A stretch of DNA of 64,000 nucleotides from Actinomycetota bacterium (lineage in GTDB: Bacteria > Actinomycetota > Aquicultoria > Subteraquimicrobiales > UBA9087): NCBI GenBank assembly GCA_030019215.1, contig JASEEZ010000007.1, forward strand, positions 2,521 to 66,520, in the 5' to 3' direction. Below the pieces are notes generated by a model. It saw nothing but the letters and a program-made list of their open reading frames with translations. It had not been told where the DNA came from and searched no databases. Within the stretch, counting starts at the first letter, position 1. Each line of letters starts with the position of its first letter. Made by a program: the position numbers and the translations under genes. Positions 29,272-53,850 of this stretch are shown here, one piece after another.

Positions 29272-30726
29272 ATGGCGACACCCGATTTTCAGGGAGGGGA
29301 TATCTTGTCCGGCAAAAAGGAGTATCTGCGCCAGCTTTCCGCGGTCGATGAGATCCTCCAGTTGGAGGAGATTCGAAGTTTGATTGGTACTCATCCCCGC
29401 CAGGTTGTGGTGGACGCCGTCCGCACCGTTCTAGAGGAGCTGAGGCGAACCATTCTATCCTCAAAGGATTCCGCTGAGCTGGCTGATCTGGAGCTTGAAC
29501 CTAAAGACCTGGTTCCTTTGATCATTGATTTGGTTCGAGAAGTGATGCACCCTCATTTGAAGAGGGTTATCAATGCCACGGGGGTGGTCATTCACACCAA
29601 CCTTGGTCGGTCGATCCTGGCCCCCGAGGCGGTTGATGCTCTTGTGACTGTAGCTGAAGGTTACTCAAATTTGGAGTTCGATTTGAAGTTGGGTGAGAGG
29701 GGTTCACGCCATGATCATGTTGAGGACTTGCTTTGCACTCTGACGGGTGCAGAGGCAGCGGCGGTAGTCAATAACAACGCCGGTGCTGTTCTTCTGGCCC
29801 TGGCCACGCTGGCCTCAGGCAAAGAGGTGGTGGTCTCGAGAGGAGAGCTAGTGGAAATCGGTGGTTCCTTCAGGATCCCCGACGTGATGCGCCAGAGCGG
29901 AGCGATCCTGAGGGAGGTGGGTACGACCAACAAAACCTATCTCAGGGATTATCGAGGAGCCATAGGGGAAGAGACCGCTCTTCTTCTCAAGGTTCACACG
30001 AGCAACTTCAGGGTGGTTGGATTCGCGGCTGAGGTCAGTCTGGAGGAGCTGGTAGTTCTGGGTGGGGAGTACAACGTGCCCGTCATGAACGACCTGGGTA
30101 GTGGTGTTTTCGTTGATCTCTCTCAATATGGACTCTCTCATGAGCCTACCGTTCAGGAGGCCCTCAAGGCTGGGGCTGACGTGGTGACCTTCAGTGGCGA
30201 TAAACTTCTGGGAGCTCCCCAAGCCGGGATAATCTTGGGAAAAAGAGAGTTCGTGGAAAAGATAAAGAAGCACCCCCTGGCCCGTGCCCTAAGAGTGGAC
30301 AAGCTCACCTTGGCTGGCCTGGAGGCCACTCTCAGGCTCTATCTGGACCCGGCCCTGGCGATCGAGCGTGTTCCCACGCTGGAAATGATACTGGCTCCCC
30401 TTGCCAATCTTGAGAAAAGAGCTCATCGGCTCGGTGAGGAGCTGAAAAAGAAGGTTGGAAAAACCTTCGATGTGAAGGTCGAGAAGGAGATATCACGGGT
30501 TGGGGGAGGGGCTCTGCCTCTGGAGGAACTTCCTACTTATGTGGTTGGCTTGACCTCCGCGGAGTTTTCCGCCGTGGAATTGGCGGGCAAACTGAGATTG
30601 TCGGAGCCGCCCATTGTAGCTCGATTAAAAGAGGACAAGGTGTTGCTTGATATGCGAACCGTTCGAGATGAAGAAATCCCCGGAATAACCTCCGCCTTTG
30701 AGGGAATTGCCCAGCCACGAAAATGA
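29272..30726 (+). CDS. selA: L-seryl-tRNA(Sec) selenium transferase
   Basis: LRQLSAVDEIL N-terminus and the PLP-lysine context FSGDKLLGAPQAGII. The start is taken at ATG 29272. Confidence 0.9.
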   Translation: MATPDFQGGDILSGKKEYLRQLSAVDEILQLEEIRSLIGTHPRQVVVDAVRTVLEELRRTILSSKDSAELADLELEPKDLVPLIIDLVREVMHPHLKRVINATGVVIHTNLGRSILAPEAVDALVTVAEGYSNLEFDLKLGERGSRHDHVEDLLCTLTGAEAAAVVNNNAGAVLLALATLASGKEVVVSRGELVEIGGSFRIPDVMRQSGAILREVGTTNKTYLRDYRGAIGEETALLLKVHTSNFRVVGFAAEVSLEELVVLGGEYNVPVMNDLGSGVFVDLSQYGLSHEPTVQEALKAGADVVTFSGDKLLGAPQAGIILGKREFVEKIKKHPLARALRVDKLTLAGLEATLRLYLDPALAIERVPTLEMILAPLANLEKRAHRLGEELKKKVGKTFDVKVEKEISRVGGGALPLEELPTYVVGLTSAEFSAVELAGKLRLSEPPIVARLKEDKVLLDMRTVRDEEIPGITSAFEGIAQPRK

Positions 30727-30739
30727 TCCTGATGGGGTG

Positions 30740-32647
30740 ATGTTTTTGAAGCATGTCATCGTCGGCACCGCTGGTCACATCGATCACGGAAAGACCACTT
30801 TGATCAAGGCCCTCACGGGAGTCGACACCGATCGTTTGAAGGAGGAGAAAAAGCGGGGCATCTCTATCGAATTGGGCTTCGCCGAGTTTAGGCTTCCCAG
30901 CGGGCAGATCGCTGGAGTGGTCGATGTCCCGGGCCACGAACGCTTTGTCAAGAATATGCTGGCCGGAGCCACGGGGATTGATCTATTGCTCCTGGTTGTG
31001 GCCGCCGACGATGGAGTAATGCCTCAAACGAAAGAACACTTGGCCATAGCCGATCTCCTGGGCGTGAAGAGAGCCGTGGTGGCTTTGACCAAGGCTGATC
31101 TGGTCGAGGAGGAGTGGCTGAAGATCGTCGAGGATGATGTGCGATCGGTACTTAAGGGAACTCTTTTTGAGGGAGCCTCGATAGTCCCCGTCTCCCCGCT
31201 CGCGGGATTCGGACTGGAGAAGTTGGTGGCCGAGATAGACGAAGCCGTTCGGGAAGTTCTCCCGAAGGATACGGATGCCCCCTACCGTCTCCCCATCGAC
31301 CGCGTCTTTATCTTAAAGGGCATCGGAACGGTGGTCACTGGAACTCTCTGGTCGGGGGAGATTCGTCCTGAGATGCAGGTTAGGCTTCTCCCCAGGGACC
31401 TCTCCGCCAGGGTGAGGAGCGTTCAAGTTCATGGACACCGCGTAGAGAAAGCATCGGCTGGGCAGCGGGTGGCTCTCAACCTGGTCGGCGTCGGTTCGGG
31501 CGAGATAGAGAGGGGTGATGTTGTTCTTCCCCCACGGTATCTATCGCCGAGCCGGATGTTTGATGCCAAACTCCAACTCTTAACCGATGCGTCAAAACCG
31601 CTGAAGAGTGGAGCGAGGGTCCGCGTTCACCATGGAACCCAGGAAGTTATGGGGAGGATCATTTTGGTCGATGCCCAGGAGATTCCTCCAGGGGAGAGCA
31701 CCTACGTCCAAATCCGTCTGGAGAAGCCGATAGTCCCCAAATTCAATGATAGGTTCATCATCAGAAGCTACTCCCCAATCCACACCATAGGGGGGGGGAG
31801 AGTTCTAGACAGCCATCCCTTTAAGCACAGGCGTTTCTCCCCAGAGACCGTGGAGAGGATGAGGATATTGGAGAAGGGGGATCCGGTGGAGATGGTCGAG
31901 CTGATTTTCGCCGAGGCCAAGCTCCATCCCCTGGATGAGAAAGCTATCGCCGCTCGCTCTGGGTTGTCGGAAGAGGTGGTTGAGGAGGCTCTCGCCACGC
32001 TAGTTCGGGATAGGGCAATCTGCTCTCTAAAGGGAGGGGGGCTCTTCGTTTCCGCGACGGGCTACGATAAGATAAAGTCGGATGTCGTTGCTTTCCTTGA
32101 GAAATATCATGTGGAGAGTCCCTTGAGCACCGGGGCCAAGAAGGAGATGGTCAGGGCCAAAGTTCTCCCGAGCCTTTCGTCTGGGCTGGCCGATATTATC
32201 TTCGCCGATCTGCTTGCCTCGGGCGCTATTTCCCAGAAAGGGGATGCTCTCCGTCATCCTCTGGTTGCGACCGAACCAAGTCCGGCGCATAGGGAGATGT
32301 GTGATAAAATAAAAAAGCTGCTGTTCGAGCAAAGATTTGCCCCTCCGCTTTTGAGTGAGGTGAGCGACCTTTTGGGGATCACTCAGGAGGAAGCCAGGGA
32401 GTATTTGAGGATGCTCTTCTCCCAAGGGGAAGTCGTGAGAGTAAGACACGATCTCTATTTTCACGGTGCCATTTTTGAGGAGATCAAAGATAAGGTGGTG
32501 AACTTCCTGGAGAAGAGGGGAAAAATAGGTCCGGGGGAGTTTAAGGAATTGCTGGGGATAAGTCGCAAGTACGCTTTACCCCTTCTGGAATATTTAGATG
32601 CCCGGCGCATCACGCGAAGGGTTGGAAACGATAGAGTGCTGCGGTAG
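30740..32647 (+). CDS. selB: Selenocysteine-specific elongation factor
   Basis: [25 protein letters not shown]-like TKAD and C-terminal winged-helix repeats. The start is taken at ATG 30740. Confidence 0.9.
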
Positions 32648-32865: not shown

Positions 32866-32962
32866 GGGGGTGGATCGGTCCTGGTGGATCGCCTGGTCTT
32901 CAAAACCACGGTGGGGTGCGAAGAGCATCCTGGGTGGGTTCGATTCCCACACACTCCCGCCA
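32866..32962 (+). tRNA. selC: tRNA-Sec (anticodon UCA)
   Basis: Hand fold: 6-bp D stem cggtcc/ggatcg with a 4-nt loop; anticodon loop cuUCAaa; 6-bp variable stem gggtgc/gcatcc; T arm gtggg-ttcgatt-cccac; long acceptor stem; G73; encoded CCA. One mismatch each in the acceptor and anticodon stems. Confidence 0.8.
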
Positions 32963-32996
32963 AATTATTCTTTCTTATCTTCGCCCAACCACCGTT

Positions 32997-33307
32997 TCAT
33001 CTGCGCTCTTTCTCCGTATTTCTCGGACCACTCCTTGAAGTGTTTTTCTTTCTGGTAGCAGTGAAATTGACCTCGCAGTGGTTGCAGATGATGGCCCTTT
33101 TGGAGTGGTGAAGAGGACAATCTTTTGTTAAATCAAAGCAGTTTTTCTTCTGGAGGTAGGCGGGACAGTCGAGGCGAAATCTCTCCTCACACCCTCCACC
33201 TCCCAGCAGGGACGGGAGGCTTTGAAGGCTGGACAGACCGTCATCACTCCCATGGAGCACCTGTGGATTACGGCACAGATTGGTATATTTTCCCACTTAG
33301 CTTCCAA
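32997..33307 (-). CDS. Cys-rich small protein, copy 1; a twin-CW-like N-part and a CxxC-rich C-part lie in two frames (-1 shift needed near 33192-33194)
   Basis: See the finding at 32997-34884. The upstream frame gives ICAVIHRCSMGVMTVCPAFKASRPCWEVEG and the downstream frame gives CEERFRLDCPAYLQKKNCFDLTKDCPLHH...ICNHCEV. Confidence 0.5.
33071..33283. repeat. 213-bp direct repeat, copy 1 (209/213 identical to 34639-34851)
   Basis: Aligned by eye. All four differences fall within a 9-nt window. Confidence 0.9.
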
Positions 33308-33465
33308 GATACGATCACCGTCCCAAGTTTTTTACAATAAAGTGGAAGGATGGACAAGTGAGCATAAAGGTTCTAACTAGTTTTGCCGATATACCTTGAA
33401 GGGTTTTTACGGTGTTCGTCGAATAATTTTCCCAGAAGGTTAATCGGAGAAAAAGGGAGGTCGAG

Positions 33466-34524
33466 ATGAAAAAAGTTTTAACGCTCGTCGTCTTGATCGG
33501 TTTGTTTCTTCTGCAGACCGTTCCGGCTATGGCAGTGGAGACCGTGGCCACGGAGAACTTCGAGACCTGGATCAACGCACAGGTGGTCAGCGGTTGGACC
33601 AGTGCGACCTCGGGCGATGGTGGGGAGTTCAGCCAGATTTACGCCTGTGGCCAGGGGGTCTCCTGTGGAGGAGATGGAACCAACTATAAATGCGTTTACC
33701 GGGATGTAACGGCCAGAGCCCCCTATTTTTACACCGCCACCGTGGAGGCCAAGTCAAACTCCATGAATGTGAACGGTCAGGTTGATGGCAGTTATGTCCA
33801 TGTTCATCTGCAGTTCAGGGATTCGGCCGGTAACGTCCTGAAGACCTCCTACACCGATGGGTCCGATCTTTCCCCCATCATCTGGAACACCCTCCAGGTC
33901 AATGGGTACGCTCCCAACGGGACAGCCGAGGTTAGGGCGATTCTCCAGGTGGTTGGCGGTGCCGGTGGTGGGACTGTCTTCAAGAACTTCAATCTCTATG
34001 AAGGCTCCTACGCTGATAGTGCTTTGACCACATTGCTGGTGGGACAGAATCTTACCAGGAGTACTGAGTGGGGCAATTCAAATATCGCCCAGGGTTGGGG
34101 TAGTTATTCCCACGGTGGTGGCCCTGGTGACTACACCAAGGTGGCCACAGGTGGCTCGGCTCAAGGGATATCCTGTGGTGGAGCTAGCACCAACTTCAAG
34201 CAGATCAGCAAGACATTTACGGCCTCCGCCGGCTATAGCTATGATGCCTCCGTAGAGGCCATATCCAACTGCACGAATGCCAGTGGAGAGATTGATCACA
34301 CTCTGGTGCGGATTTACATGGAGTTTTTGGATTCCTCCAGTAATGTTTTAGCTACACACATTATGGATGGGAAGCAGTGTGGTATCGAGCCCGCCAGGAC
34401 ATACAGTTTGAGGGCGCAGGCTGTTTCTCCGACGGGAACAACCCAGGTTAGGGTAACTTTGAAGGTTTTTGGTTGTTCTGCGGGGGGAGCGGTCTTCGAC
34501 AACTTTACCTTGACCAAATATTGA
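33466..34524 (+). CDS. Secreted protein with two tandem beta-sandwich (CBM/galactose-binding-like) repeats
   Basis: Signal peptide MKKVLTLVVLIGLFLLQTVPAMA. Two repeats of about 150 aa share GxSCGG..TN(Y/F)K...(Y/F)..(T/S)VEA(K/I)SN...G..D...V.(V/I).(L/M).F.DS.(G/S)NVL...VF.NF.L. Confidence 0.7.
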   Translation: MKKVLTLVVLIGLFLLQTVPAMAVETVATENFETWINAQVVSGWTSATSGDGGEFSQIYACGQGVSCGGDGTNYKCVYRDVTARAPYFYTATVEAKSNSMNVNGQVDGSYVHVHLQFRDSAGNVLKTSYTDGSDLSPIIWNTLQVNGYAPNGTAEVRAILQVVGGAGGGTVFKNFNLYEGSYADSALTTLLVGQNLTRSTEWGNSNIAQGWGSYSHGGGPGDYTKVATGGSAQGISCGGASTNFKQISKTFTASAGYSYDASVEAISNCTNASGEIDHTLVRIYMEFLDSSSNVLATHIMDGKQCGIEPARTYSLRAQAVSPTGTTQVRVTLKVFGCSAGGAVFDNFTLTKY

Positions 34525-34554
34525 TGCTAAGTCGCTGCAAGATTGAGGGTTGCA

Positions 34555-34583
34555 ATCAAACCCCGCCAATGGCGGGGTTTGAT
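34555..34583. terminator. Bidirectional intrinsic terminator
   Basis: atcaaaccccgcc-aat-ggcggggtttgat forms a 13-bp stem with A/T-rich flanks on both sides, lying between convergent genes. Confidence 0.7.
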
Positions 34584-34884
34584 TATTTCATCCACTTCTT
34601 AGCCCGTCTCTCGCTCTCGTACTGGTGATATTGACACACCTCGCAGTGGTTGCAGATGATGGCCCTTTTGGAGTGGTGAAGAGGACAATCTTTCGTCAGC
34701 TCAAAGCAGTTTTTCTTCTGGAGGTAGGCGGGACAGTCGAGGCGAAATCTCTCCTCACACCCTCCACCTCCCAGCAGGGACGGGAGGCTTTGAAGGCTGG
34801 ACAGACCGTCATCACTCCCATGGAGCACCTGTGGATTACGGCACAGATTGGAATCTGCCTCTCATCATTTGCCAACGTTACCAC
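34583..34884 (-). CDS. Cys-rich small protein, copy 2 (same two-frame organisation; shift near 34760-34762)
   Basis: ORFs 34696..34884 and 34583..34828 overlap in different frames. Joined, they read ...ICAVIHRCSMGVMTVCPAFKASRPCWEVEG|CEERFRLDCPAYLQKKNCFELTKDCPLHHSKRAIICNHCEVCQYHQ... Confidence 0.5.
34639..34851. repeat. 213-bp direct repeat, copy 2
   Basis: See copy 1 at 33071-33283. Confidence 0.9.
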
Positions 34885-34963
34885 CCCTCGCGCTCGCTAG
34901 TGAATTTATCACAACTTATCTTGAGGGGCAATACAATATATTTTATGGATGATAGGGCGGTGC

Positions 34964-35099: not shown

Positions 35100-35265
35100 G
35101 ATACATCTCCGACCCGGAGCCCCTAAGCCTGAAGGGATTTCGTGGTTCTATCAAAAAGCAAGATGACGGATTCCGAGTAGCCGTAGGCGGGGTATGGGGC
35201 GAGGGCGATAGGGCCAGAAGAGGGGAAACCCCCTGTGCCTCCCGTGTTTGGAAAGGAGAGGGTGA
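35100..35265 (+). promoter_or_regulatory. Candidate molybdenum-cofactor (Moco) riboswitch
   Basis: It lies upstream of moaA. It contains CCGAG...GCC, GCCTCCC (35237-35243) and GGAAAGGAG (35250-35258), elements I recall as conserved in the Moco RNA motif. A terminator hairpin follows. I ran no covariance-model test. Confidence 0.45.
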
Positions 35266-35271
35266 GCCGCT

Positions 35272-35297
35272 TCTTTTGCCGGGGGCGGCGTTTTTAT
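35272..35297 (+). terminator. Leader terminator / expression platform upstream of moaA
   Basis: gccgc-ttcttttgccgggg-gcggc followed by gttttta. Confidence 0.45.
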
Positions 35298-35312
35298 TCG
35301 GCGGGGACGAAG

Positions 35313-36284
35313 ATGCCCGATTTGGTCGATCCATTTAACCGAAAGATAGATTATCTGCGTCTCTCCATCACCGACAGGTGTAACCTTCGCTGCATTTATT
35401 GCATGCCCCTCAAGGGAATGACCTGGAAATCTCACGATGAAATTCTGACTTATGAAGAGATAGCCCTCTTTGCAAGGCATGCTGTCAAAGCCGGCATCTC
35501 AAAGATCAGGCTGACGGGGGGAGAGCCTTTGATCCGTCGGGACGTGGTTGGCTTAGTGGGCGATCTTTGTACCATCCCAGATGTGAAGGACATATCCCTC
35601 ACGACAAACGGTCTGCTTTTGGCGGATTACGTTGACGATCTCGTCAAGGCGGGTTTGAGAAGGGTAAACATAAGCATCGATTCACTCAAGCCCGAGGTTT
35701 ACCGCCGCATCACCCGGGGCGGCGATGTCGAAAGGGTCCTCGAGGGGTTGGAGGCTGCCCTGGAAGCCCCCCTTCATCCCGTCAAAGTGAACGTGGTTGT
35801 TCTGCGAGGGGTAAATGATGACCTCGAGGATTTTGTTGAGTTTGCCTACAACTACCCCATCCACGTGAGGTTCATCGAGCACATGCCCTTTAATGAAGAG
35901 ATCGGCCAGGACTATTTTGTATCTTGCTCTGAGATGAGGAGAAGGATGGAGAGTTTTGGTGAATTCGAGGAGACTCTCTCCCCTCCGGGGGCTGGTCCAG
36001 CTAGATATTTAAAGTTTAAGGGAGCGCTGGGGACCCTCGGTTTCATCAGTCCAATGAGTGGTCACTTCTGTTCCCGGTGCAACAGACTCCGCCTGACCGC
36101 GGACGGGAAGCTCAGAACCTGTCTCTTCTCCGATGAGGAGGTCGACGTGCGTGAGGTTCTCAGAAGGGGGGCTGGTGAGGGGGAAGTGGTGAAGTTGATC
36201 GGGGAAACCCTGGCCAAGAAACCAAGGGACCGTTTTTCTGCTCGGAGGAAATTTCAACGGAGGATGTTTCAGATTGGAGGTTGA
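35313..36284 (+). CDS. moaA: GTP 3',8-cyclase MoaA (radical SAM)
   Basis: MPDLVDPFNRKIDYLRLSITDRCNLRCIYCMP and the C-terminal cluster CSRCNRLRLTADGKLRTC. Confidence 0.9.
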   Translation: MPDLVDPFNRKIDYLRLSITDRCNLRCIYCMPLKGMTWKSHDEILTYEEIALFARHAVKAGISKIRLTGGEPLIRRDVVGLVGDLCTIPDVKDISLTTNGLLLADYVDDLVKAGLRRVNISIDSLKPEVYRRITRGGDVERVLEGLEAALEAPLHPVKVNVVVLRGVNDDLEDFVEFAYNYPIHVRFIEHMPFNEEIGQDYFVSCSEMRRRMESFGEFEETLSPPGAGPARYLKFKGALGTLGFISPMSGHFCSRCNRLRLTADGKLRTCLFSDEEVDVREVLRRGAGEGEVVKLIGETLAKKPRDRFSARRKFQRRMFQIGG

Positions 36285-36287
36285 GAT

Positions 36288-36343
36288 ATGTCGGATGTCG
36301 GATTTATCCTGGGCGAAGTCGAAGGATGTCGGATGTCGGATGG
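36288..36343. repeat. Heptamer tract at the moaA-moaC junction
   Basis: atgtcgg atgtcgg atttatc ctgggcg aagtcga aggatgt cggatgt cggatgg. Confidence 0.75.
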
Positions 36344-36833
36344 GGGAAGAAAATCAGATACCGAGCTCACGCATTTTGATGAGCGGGGCGGGGCGAGGAT
36401 GGTCGATGTGAGCGGGAAGGAGCCCACCCATCGGGAAGCGGTCGCCAGGGCGATCGTCAAGATGAAATCTCAGACACTGGAGATGATCAGAACCGGCGGG
36501 GTAAAGAAGGGAGACGTGCTTGCCGTGGCCCAGGTGGCGGGAGTGATGGCTGCCAAGAAGGCTTCCGAGCTCATCCCCCTGTGTCATCCCATCGGCATCT
36601 CCGGAGTAAACATCAATTTCAATCTGGATGAGGAAGAGGCGAACATCGAGATTGAAGCCGCTGTCAAAACCATGGATAGAACCGGTGTTGAGATGGAGGC
36701 ACTGGTTGCTTGCTCTATTGCTGCCTTAACCATCTATGATATGTGTAAATCTGTGGACAGGGCCATGACCGTAAGCGAAGTTCGCTTGGTGCGGAAGAGC
36801 GGTGGGGAGAGTGGCGAGTTCGTGCGCAAATGA
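36333..36833 (+). CDS. moaC: Cyclic pyranopterin monophosphate synthase MoaC
   Basis: ELTHFDERGGARMVDVSGKEPTHREAVA. The start is ambiguous (36288 or 36333) because ATGs are generated by the repeat. Confidence 0.85.
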   Translation: MSDGGRKSDTELTHFDERGGARMVDVSGKEPTHREAVARAIVKMKSQTLEMIRTGGVKKGDVLAVAQVAGVMAAKKASELIPLCHPIGISGVNINFNLDEEEANIEIEAAVKTMDRTGVEMEALVACSIAALTIYDMCKSVDRAMTVSEVRLVRKSGGESGEFVRK

Positions 36834-51617: not shown

Positions 51618-51887
51618 GTGAGAAAGAAGAGCGGTGAGGAGAGCAAGGCGAACTATTTGAGGGTGCCCATCACGATGCCCGGGGAAATGTTTGGCTATCT
51701 TGAGGATTTGAGCCTGAAGGCGAAGGTTTCAGGCGGCCGCAAGCTGGCGAACACGACTATTATGAGAGCTTGCATTAAGGCCCTCATGAAGCTGGATGTG
51801 GATGTTACCGGTGTTCGGGATGAGGCTGAACTCACGGAGAGGATAATGGAAGCAAGGGCTAAATACACCGCTGGTAAAAGGAAGTGA
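51618..51887 (+). CDS. Small putative ribbon-helix-helix-like DNA-binding protein, paralogue 1
   Basis: GTG start with RBS aaaggagcggagg. LRVPITMPGEMFGYLEDLS (beta strand plus helix) pattern. Paralogous to the next gene. Confidence 0.55.
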   Translation: MRKKSGEESKANYLRVPITMPGEMFGYLEDLSLKAKVSGGRKLANTTIMRACIKALMKLDVDVTGVRDEAELTERIMEARAKYTAGKRK

Positions 51888-51947: not shown

Positions 51948-52005
51948 TTAGCCTGTTGTTTGTTGGGGTTACTTAATTATGAATTGTGCGAGGTGGTCGA
52001 GGCCC

Positions 52006-52254
52006 ATGGATAAAGAGAGAAATTTGGCCGGGTCAGTTTCACTGCAGCGGGTTTCAACTTTCCTAGACGATCAACAGATTAAGTTTCTCGATGGTTTATC
52101 TCGGCGGATGAAGTTCAGTGGAGGATGCAAGTTGCCGAGGACAAAGATTCTTCGAGCTATGCTTTCGGCATTCATGGAGATGCAGGTGGACGTGTCGAAA
52201 GTTGGAGACGAGGGCGAACTCAAGGAGAGGATTCTCAAAGCCGTTCGGCGCTGA
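52006..52254 (+). CDS. Small putative ribbon-helix-helix-like protein, paralogue 2
   Basis: Aligns with paralogue 1: R(V)..........L..LS...K.SGG.KL..T.I.RA...A.M...VDV..V.DE.EL.ERI. The start is taken at the internal ATG 52006; the ORF opens at 51979. Confidence 0.5.
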   Translation: MDKERNLAGSVSLQRVSTFLDDQQIKFLDGLSRRMKFSGGCKLPRTKILRAMLSAFMEMQVDVSKVGDEGELKERILKAVRR

Positions 52255-52269: not shown

Positions 52270-52464
52270 TTGCAGAATTGTTGGAGTTTAAAGGGTTGTC
52301 CTGCCAGTTACTACCTCAACTGTACGGCTTATGAGAAGAGAGTGAGTTGTTGGGAGATCAAGGATGGTTGCCTTTGCCGTGTCCACGAAAGTTGCGAAGA
52401 CTGTCCAATTTACATCAAGCATCTGGCCGATATTAAGCAGAGTAAGAAGAAGGAGCCCTCCTAG
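52270..52464 (+). CDS. Small Cys-rich protein with twin CW motifs (two-CW-domain-like)
   Basis: MQNCWSLKGCPASYYLNCTAYEKRVSCWEIKDGCLCRVHESCEDCPIY, with a TTG start. The family name is recalled from memory and not verified. Confidence 0.5.
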   Translation: MQNCWSLKGCPASYYLNCTAYEKRVSCWEIKDGCLCRVHESCEDCPIYIKHLADIKQSKKKEPS

Positions 52465-52749: not shown

Positions 52750-53850
52750 GTGATTCGGGTATCGGCGGTTACCGGAGTCCAGGATGTGTTGAATCTCAGA
52801 GAAAGCTGGGATGGTCTTCTCGAAACCAGCGGTGGGACCGTTTTCCAGAGTTGGGAGTGGCAGAGGGTTTGGTGGGAGCATTACGGGCGGGGCAAGCGCC
52901 CTTTCATTTTACTCGTTTACGAAGATGAGAAACTTATGGGCATCGCTCCTTTCTTCGTTTCTCTCTCCCATCTGGGCTTGCCTCTTAAGGTCATTTCATT
53001 CTTGGGCAGCGGTCCCTCGGACTACGGGGATCTTCTTCTCCACCCTTCCCGGAGGTTCGAGGCGCTAGAGGCCATCATGGGTTATCTCCAGACATGTGAG
53101 GATTGGGATGCCATTGACCTTCAGGAGATTCCCTCAAATTCTGCTAATTTTCGAATACTGAGGGAGTCATATTGCGGGGGAGATTTGGAGATTCAAGAAT
53201 TTACGCAGGATGTTTCCTTTGCCCTTTCCCTGCCGGGTAGCTGGGATGGATTCTTGCAGTCTCTTGATAGAAAGTTTCGCTGGAATATCCTTTACTACGC
53301 TCGCCGGCTTCGTCGGGATCATGAGACACAAGTGCACCGAGCGAGAAGTGTAGAAGAAGTGGATCGAGGAATGTCCGACCTCTTTCTTCTTCATCGGAGG
53401 AGACAGAGAGAGAAAGGGTTGCCCACCCCCATTCTCAGCAGGAGGTATAGGGGTTTTCACCGGGAGGTGGCTCACCAATTTTTCAGGCGCGGCTGGCTTG
53501 CTCTCTATTCTCTATGCGTCGATGGGGAAGTGGTTTCCGCTCTTTATGGTTTTGAACATGGTGATCGCTTCTACTACTATCTGGGAGGGTTTGATCCTTT
53601 CTGGGGGAGATTGAGCGTGGCCACGATTCTCATAGCTGATGTTATTAAAGAGGCGATCGAGAAAGGATTTAAAACTTTTGATTTTCTGCGGGGCGAGGAG
53701 AGCTACAAAGTGCGGTGGGGGGCCGTTCCAAGACAAAATATTCGCCTCATCATCACCAGGGAGCGCTCCAAATCCAGCCTACTCAGGGCGATCTTAGAGC
53801 GGGAAAACGTAGTCGTTCGGGAGATTAAACAGAAACTCCGAAAGCCTTAA
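52750..53850 (+). CDS. GNAT-fold acyltransferase of the FemAB/CelD (BioF2-like) type
   Basis: 366 aa with FQSWEWQRVWWEHYG N-terminal signature and YYYLGGFDP...DFLRGEESYKVRWG C-terminal signature. Confidence 0.65.
   Translation: MIRVSAVTGVQDVLNLRESWDGLLETSGGTVFQSWEWQRVWWEHYGRGKRPFILLVYEDEKLMGIAPFFVSLSHLGLPLKVISFLGSGPSDYGDLLLHPSRRFEALEAIMGYLQTCEDWDAIDLQEIPSNSANFRILRESYCGGDLEIQEFTQDVSFALSLPGSWDGFLQSLDRKFRWNILYYARRLRRDHETQVHRARSVEEVDRGMSDLFLLHRRRQREKGLPTPILSRRYRGFHREVAHQFFRRGWLALYSLCVDGEVVSALYGFEHGDRFYYYLGGFDPFWGRLSVATILIADVIKEAIEKGFKTFDFLRGEESYKVRWGAVPRQNIRLIITRERSKSSLLRAILERENVVVREIKQKLRKP

Follow-up and report, generated by a model that had tools for sequence, protein, structure and literature searches.

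We analyzed a duplicated small Cys-rich gene in a 64,000-nt stretch of an Actinomycetota genome (assembly GCA_030019215.1, contig JASEEZ010000007.1, positions 2,521 to 66,520), hereafter the window. The two copies lie on the minus strand on either side of a gene for a secreted protein, and neither copy can be read in a single frame. A reading of the letters alone (the original prediction) had described a repeat that brackets the secreted-protein gene and had offered three explanations for the frame change shared by the two copies: a programmed frameshift, an inherited lesion spread by gene conversion, or the same homopolymer miscall. The features of the locus are as follows, in window coordinates.

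32866..32962, plus strand: tRNA-SeC, downstream of selB (30698-32647); ARAGORN; Rfam RF01852, 74.9 bits
32965..33307, minus strand: copy 1, presumed pseudogene in three frames (N-part 33191-33307, middle 33069-33194, 3' remnant 32965-33069); tblastn
33066..33071, minus strand: second lesion, in copy 1 only, GAGGT|CAA (the bar marks the lesion); sequence comparison and tblastn frame change
33070..33286, minus strand: repeat tract in copy 1, presumed conversion recipient; 209/213 identical to copy 2
33192..33196, minus strand: deletion junction of copy 1, GAGGG microhomology, 97 nt missing; six equivalent placements, tract offsets 87-92
33466..34524, plus strand: secreted-protein gene, intact, 352 aa; open reading frame (ORF), internal repeat, AlphaFold2 (AF2) model, Foldseek
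34553..34585, no strand: perfect 14-bp hairpin (AATCAAACCCCGCC-AATG-GCGGGGTTTGATT); read directly
34583..34884, minus strand: copy 2, orthologue of the intact protein P0001, split in two frames; ORFs, homology, tblastn
34638..34854, minus strand: repeat tract in copy 2, presumed conversion donor; comparison with contig L001
34760..34764, minus strand: deletion junction of copy 2 (GAGGG); alignment to L001
52270..52464, plus strand: single-module paralogue, 64 aa, intact, 8 Cys, two CW motifs; ORF, homologous to the modules of P0001

A repeat search of the window recovered the direct repeat as 33070-33286 and 34638-34854 (217 nt, 98% identity). Together with direct reading, it confirmed the 213-nt core described earlier, in which 209/213 positions are identical between the copies and exactly four mismatches occur (33132, 33131, 33129 and 33126 in copy 1; 34700, 34699, 34697 and 34694 in copy 2). 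In the downstream frame of the minus strand the codon changes are GAT/GAG (D/E), TTA/CTG (L/L) and ACA/ACG (T/T), as reported; the mismatches are clustered, three of them synonymous and one conservative. This pattern had been taken as a sign of a coding frame under selection. The first half of the argument stands, in that the pattern fits a coding frame that homology has already established; the second does not, as the pattern carries no information on present-day selection. The four clustered mismatches are most readily explained as a patch that gene conversion left behind or brought in; their synonymous bias reflects the past coding of the frame and not a present function.

The two-frame layout was likewise evident from the ORFs. 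Overlapping minus-strand ORFs occupy 33128-33307 and 32997-33296 in copy 1, and 34696-34884 and 34583-34828 in copy 2, for which the start codon is probably the TTG at 34875. The switch between them falls at the GGG runs at 33192-33194 and 34760-34762 and is a -1 change, equal to one missing base. Both copies need this frame change, as had been claimed, but copy 1 additionally needs a second one that had been missed: with the intact homologues P0002 and P0003 as tblastn queries, copy 2 was matched in two frames (-2, -1) and copy 1 in three (-1, -3 and -2 successively).

Intact homologues and the 97-nt deletion

We searched for homologues with the hypothetical fused protein as the query and retrieved three clusters of intact proteins. 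The intact homologues are encoded in a single frame (P0001, 129 aa; P0002, 133 aa; P0003, 136 aa; and an ORF of 131 aa on contig L010), and all four carry about 32 residues without counterpart in the window, which in P0001 read TCCASEHRDELCSDCKVYKLFIKKEKCWEVRG. The extra residues sit between ...PCWEVEG and CEERFRLDCPAY (CEERF...), exactly at the frame change of the window copies. Among P0001, P0002 and P0003, 19 of the 32 extra positions are invariant, including five Cys and the second CW. On either side of the missing segment P0001 agrees closely with copy 2, at 100% identity over residues 1-39 and 88% over residues 71-129.

P0001 is encoded on L001, a 2.6-kb metagenome contig that is collinear with window positions 35401-32861 (91-92% identity in the BLAST segments, about 90% over the whole alignment). 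The window lacks exactly 97 nt of L001, with the gap at 34760-34764 and GAGGG on both sides, and the six equivalent placements of the gap define a 5-nt GAGGG microhomology. L001 without these 97 nt is identical to each window copy at 203/214 positions (94.9%). The junction sequence is TGGGAGGTGGAGGGTGTGAGG at both 33192-33196 and 34760-34764. In L001, TGCTGGGAGGT-G-GAGGG and TGCTGGGAGGT-CA-GAGGG, a pair of imperfect direct repeats, encode the two CW motifs; they lie 96 nt apart at their start and 97 nt apart at GAGGG. Given a one-base difference in length between the repeats and a crossover in the distal GAGGG, the deletion amounts to 96+1 nt, so that 32 conserved codons were lost and the rest of the gene was put out of frame. 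Relative to intact close orthologues, the lesion thus removes conserved residues (19/32 invariant). Misaligned pairing between the repeats that encode CWEVxG, by replication slippage or unequal recombination, probably produced the 97-nt deletion in a single step.

The lesion is more than a 1-nt change in the G run: the L001 allele reveals a 97-nt deletion between GAGGG microhomologies. The observed junction is the exact product of one deletion at the microhomology, so no extra base-calling error is needed. We considered a broader artefact, in which the true sequence would be GGGG (a 96-nt in-frame deletion with a homopolymer undercall) or a strain-mosaic or consensus assembly would have imposed one haplotype on both copies. 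Around the junction the two copies do not differ, and a 195-nt block of perfect identity with L001, which strain-mosaic assembly could produce, is centered on it. We nevertheless regard an artefact as unlikely: the junction is just what the L001 allele predicts for one 97-nt deletion at the 5-nt microhomology, assemblers and base-callers do not generate a deletion of 97 nt at such a microhomology, repeats of 11+5 nt are not open to collapse by a k-mer assembler, the four internal mismatches mean that the copies were assembled separately, and a run of only three G is little prone to miscalls. The neighboring genes are also full-length compared to their relatives (SelB 649 vs 637, SelA 513 vs 470 and Lon 797 vs 792 residues; likewise MoaA, MoaC and the ORF corresponding to phosphoenolpyruvate carboxylase in relatives), suggesting that indel errors are not rampant.

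The identical block extends over window positions ~34725-34920 (L001 501-792) when the 97-nt gap is ignored, while the next longest identical run between the window and L001 is 75 nt, at a mean divergence of about 10%. The 5' coding part of copy 2 (38 codons) has no differences from L001, while the synonymous divergence (dS) of neighboring genes is 0.34-0.45. The block could reflect recent inter-strain recombination, strain-mosaic assembly or nucleotide-level constraint.

The N-part of the window copies had been likened to the 64-aa protein encoded at 52270 (the 52270 protein). The resemblance held, although it is weak for the N-part alone (E 7e-4) and becomes clear through the intact homologue (E 1e-5). 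The 52270 protein, with CW at residues 4-5 and 26-27 and six further Cys, matched P0001 at residues 64-99 (E 2e-8) and at residues 11-57 (E 1e-5). Its homology to both halves of P0001 indicates that each intact protein consists of two two-CW-like modules in tandem, every module with 8 Cys; module 1 of P0001 carries CA and CW, and module 2 carries CW and CF. The framework of two CW dipeptides among Cys residues within ~50-80 aa is present in the 52270 protein and broken by the deletion in the window copies. The alignment that had been proposed past the shift (GCLCRVHESCEDCPIY against GCEERFRLDCPAY) gave way to a better register: at E 6e-8, against E 8e-5 for the proposed one, residues 37-67 of the fused sequence align with residues 4-34 of the 52270 protein (CWEVEG-CEERFRLDCPAY against its start, CWSLKGCPASYYLNCTAY). 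The true continuation of module 1 (TCCASEHRDELCSDCKVY) falls in the deleted segment.

The two copies and the proposed conversion tract

Copy 1 carries its second lesion at the 3' edge of the repeat, where it reads GAGGTCAATTT in place of the GAGGTGTGTCAA of copy 2 and L001; 4 nt of a (GT)3 run were lost and (GT)1 was left. Past this second frame change, copy 1 can be followed further in another frame, where it reads QFHCYQKEKHFKEW...KKE*, like the C-termini of its orthologs, and stops 2 nt from tRNA-SeC. A single orthologous gene ends beside tRNA-SeC and selB in L002, L004, L008 and L010, and the adjacency of the Cys-rich gene to tRNA-SeC is kept in these four contigs as well as in L001 and L011. 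The N-terminus of copy 1, MEAKWENIPICAV (MEAKWENIP), is closer to those of the orthologs (KDKWDNIP, EKNAWGNIP) than is the ANDERQIP of copy 2. The position of copy 1 at tRNA-SeC and its ortholog-like ends outside the tract argue for it as the ancestral gene. The second paralogue, copy 2, lies beyond the acquired gene for the secreted protein.

L001 and L011 retain only a ~100-nt 3' remnant of copy 1, with ~42 nt of unrelated sequence replacing window positions 33064-33355, and besides this remnant they keep an intact copy 2 or its end. The presence of the remnant beside copy 2 in both contigs indicates that the two-copy arrangement is older than the split of the strains, for which dS is 0.34-0.45 in the neighboring secreted-protein gene. 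The remnant is identical in L001 (2161-2300) and L011 (158-300) and can be read as a 37-aa ORF (MPQRHRYQREKHF...KKE*) that starts in the 42-nt filler; compared with the window, its ratio of nonsynonymous to synonymous divergence (dN/dS) is 0.27 over 32 codons, too few to interpret.

Both window copies share seven substitutions relative to L001, and the flanks of the tract are unalignable, or alignable only with an indel. Near-identity is therefore confined to the tract, between divergent flanks and in copies that predate the strain divergence. With 4/213 mismatches and seven shared derived substitutions in such older paralogues, the comparison points to a recent gene-conversion tract and to concerted evolution. 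Conversion over ~214 nt would have transferred the deletion scar between the copies, with copy 2 as the most likely donor and copy 1 as the recipient; this direction is favored because the tract is about as far from the copy 2 of L001 (94.9% identical) as is the rest of the locus. Copy 1 lost the 4 nt of its (GT)3 run either after the conversion or already before it.

The short tract and its sharp borders might also suggest that a segment of the already deleted copy 2 was duplicated next to tRNA-SeC, with no conversion. The tract is absent at the copy 1 position in L001 and L011, and an L001-like state could be the ancestral one. We find this duplication quite unlikely, as ~70 nt of 5' sequence are unique to copy 1 and encode an N-terminus like that of the orthologs (KW-NIP), and the ortholog-like 3' end of copy 1 lies in the syntenic place; both would be hard to obtain by partial copying into a remnant.

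Concerted evolution of paralogues by gene conversion is familiar from tufA and tufB in Salmonella, and deletions between short direct repeats (microhomology) are well known. The present locus resembles these cases in the end-points of the deletion, which lie in short direct repeats, and in the near-identical tract with divergent flanks. It differs from conversion of the tufA/tufB type in that the tract carries an inactivating lesion: a defect would have been spread where function is normally preserved. An exact-pattern scan with the 23 nt upstream of the junction gave no matches in genome contigs and none in metagenome contigs; protein-pattern scans returned only the three known orthologous loci.

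Probable gene decay and the case for recoding

We consider it likely that the window holds two paralogues of a rare tandem two-CW-like family that were inactivated by one deletion, which gene conversion spread, and that the frame change is not a recoding signal. Both copies would be recent pseudogenes that have lost their function. The spread of an inherited lesion by gene conversion is thus the best supported of the three explanations offered originally, with the lesion corrected to a 97-nt repeat-mediated deletion. We regard the case as ordinary decay of genes whose Cys-rich family is rare and uncharacterised.

Several points weigh against this interpretation. At the nucleotide level the deletion site is covered by one related contig only, L001. 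The assembly consensus may exaggerate the likeness of the copies, or an intact allele may coexist in the population. The downstream frame of copy 2 has a dN/dS of 0.12 compared with L001 (58 codons), which, like the synonymous mismatches between the copies, is expected from a recent lesion and would also fit continued translation. The fused sequence contains a complete module (E 6e-8 to the 52270 protein), so that the scar is "almost" a clean domain collapse. The last two points would favor programmed -1 ribosomal frameshifting, or other recoding, at GAG-GGT in both copies, with a product made of half of module 1 and one complete two-CW-like module. The same shift is common to both copies, and a Shine-Dalgarno-like string, GGAGGTGGAGGG, lies immediately upstream of it.

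Our analysis leaves programmed recoding very improbable. The zero frame reads TGG GAG GTG GAG GGT GTG, with no heptamer of the form X XXY YYZ at the junction or close to it. The fold of the 96 nt downstream of the site (-31.9 kcal/mol, z = -1.4) was equaled by 17 of 200 shuffled sequences, which does not distinguish it from chance. The string GGAGGTGGAGGG is merely the W-E-V-E-G codons and lies in frame in the intact gene of L001. All four intact homologues (P0001, P0002, P0003 and the L010 ORF) are single-frame with no conserved shift, and searches of three collections returned no other example of the two-frame layout. The site was made by the 97-nt deletion and is not an inherited conserved signal. 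Moreover, copy 1 would need a second, unrelated shift, and no recoding model explains two. The likeness to programmed -1 frameshifting of the dnaX or insertion sequence (IS) element type consists of two frames offset by -1 and an upstream Shine-Dalgarno-like string; unlike those systems, the present site has no slippery heptamer, no significant structure and no conservation, and it is a deletion junction.

In a related proposal, non-canonical P-site slippage on GAG-GGT, helped by the internal Shine-Dalgarno-like string, rescues a fresh domain-collapsing deletion in both copies. The result would be a new two-CW-like protein of one module, whose first CW is the second CW of the former module 1; we give this proposal equally little credence. 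We also examined selenocysteine recoding, in view of the adjacent selB and tRNA-SeC genes. It was rejected, as each of the homologues is an ordinary single ORF and a TGA occurs nearby only in the third frame, which is not used.

It is just as doubtful that the split ORFs are now separate functional genes, encoding an N-terminal Cys-rich peptide of 59-62 aa and a downstream protein of 81-99 aa. Both ORFs are open, and the 59-aa ORF is called as a gene (P0004) in the source annotation. The downstream ORF, on the other hand, has only a GTG start and no Shine-Dalgarno-like sequence, the N-terminal ORF ends in an out-of-frame tail without homologues, neither piece has the full set of invariant Cys residues of the family, and no homologue is split in such a way.

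The main value of the gene-decay interpretation is as a correction, in which a shared frame change that resembles programmed recoding is a deletion scar spread by conversion; the correction keeps a false positive out of catalogues of recoded genes. The locus also illustrates cleanly, in a natural setting, how a repeat at the codon level serves as a substrate for deletion: the DNA repeats of the CWEVxG motif are one base out of register, so that recombination between them breaks the frame.

The Cys-rich family, the secreted protein and the surrounding genes

The Cys-rich protein is small and cytoplasmic, and about 130 aa long when intact. Its 8 Cys per module suggest that it may bind a metal (Zn or Fe-S). 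A family profile search of 1.84 billion representatives gave nine matches at E<=1e-3; the remote matches share a module of the form CW-x4-C-x7-CPAY-x5-CWE-...-C-x2-C-x-VY. A word-based search with the 52270 protein gave a single match (89% identical). Relatives come from Ca. Oleimmundimicrobium, of the class Ca. Aquicultoria, and from metagenome-assembled genomes of Actinomycetota.

Scanned against Pfam and NCBIfam, the 52270 protein, the fused sequence and both ORFs gave nothing usable, and a Pfam scan of the homologues gave no match. The intact homologue had no relative in the PDB, either by sequence profile or by Foldseek on its AF2 model (predicted local distance difference test score, pLDDT, 75.6), and a literature search on 'two-CW domain' found no paper. 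The nearest described family is NCBIfam NF045718 (two-CW domain-containing protein, uncharacterised), which has the common pattern CW-x4-C-x7-C-x-A-Y/F-x5-CWE-...-C-x2-C-x-V/I-Y, with ~8 Cys in ~50 aa. Three remote relatives (P0022, P0025 and P0026), found with our family profile at E 1e-4 to 8e-4, matched NF045718 at E 1e-4 to 1e-3 (19-22 bits). The curated cut-off of 35 bits was not reached, P0001 scoring 10.9 bits (E 0.46), and the fused window sequences, the N-terminal and downstream ORFs and the 52270 protein had no match to the NF045718 hidden Markov model at E<=1. Unlike NF045718, the intact proteins described here are tandem modules with CA at the place of the first CW and CF at that of the fourth. 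The analysis therefore delineates a very rare family with 8 Cys per module, found in tandem form at tRNA-SeC and selB in Actinomycetota of the Ca. Aquicultoria type, which might merit biochemical study. Nothing ties the family to selenium metabolism beyond the conserved gene order among related genomes.

The secreted-protein gene between the two copies (33466-34524) is intact and encodes a signal-peptide-like N-terminus followed by two halves that are 40% identical (E 2e-35). It is under strong purifying selection (dN/dS 0.07 compared with L001 and L011). The AF2 model consists of two beta-sandwiches (pLDDT 82), for which Foldseek retrieved 4xup, the tandem CBM22 of Paenibacillus Xyn10C (CBM, carbohydrate-binding module), at E 7e-8, followed by CBM4 (2y64, 1gui) and CBM16 (2zex) at E ~3e-4 to 6e-4 with target template modeling (TM) scores of 0.5-0.57. 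The same two consecutive beta-sandwich domains are present, but the sequence identity to these modules is 10-13% and no catalytic domain is attached. Pfam and NCBIfam scans of the protein gave no family above threshold. The predicted structure thus describes a tandem CBM-like beta-sandwich protein by fold similarity, not by membership of a sequence family.

We also considered that the Cys-rich, secreted and Cys-rich genes form a conserved system. This was rejected: orthologous Cys-rich loci lack the secreted-protein gene, and among its 14 homologues those in L006 and L007 have no Cys-rich neighbors. The three-gene layout is therefore taken as a lineage-specific accident of duplication or insertion. 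A small TusA-family gene lies near the secreted-protein homologue in two unrelated contigs (L006 7101-7334 and L007 5232-5459), which may be a coincidence.

The GC-rich hairpin at 34553-34585, between the convergent secreted-protein gene and copy 2, is kept in L001 and L011 and is likely a bidirectional terminator. A simple consensus terminator scan did not call it, and terminator and promoter scans of the region gave nothing decisive. On the other side of copy 2, moaA (35235-36284) and moaC (36288-36833) run divergently from it; a riboswitch for the molybdenum/tungsten cofactor (Moco; RF01055, 35095-35274, plus strand, 40.4 bits) lies ahead of moaA, and the junction of the two genes (36277-36349) contains short tandem GGATGTCGGAT-like units. 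Directly before the 52270 gene are two paralogous small ORFs on the plus strand (51618-51887 and 51979-52254; 89 and 91 aa), which are 45% identical (E 7e-17) and match no Pfam family. The 52270 gene is followed by a gene for a GNAT-like acetyltransferase (Acetyltransf_6) at 52750-53850.

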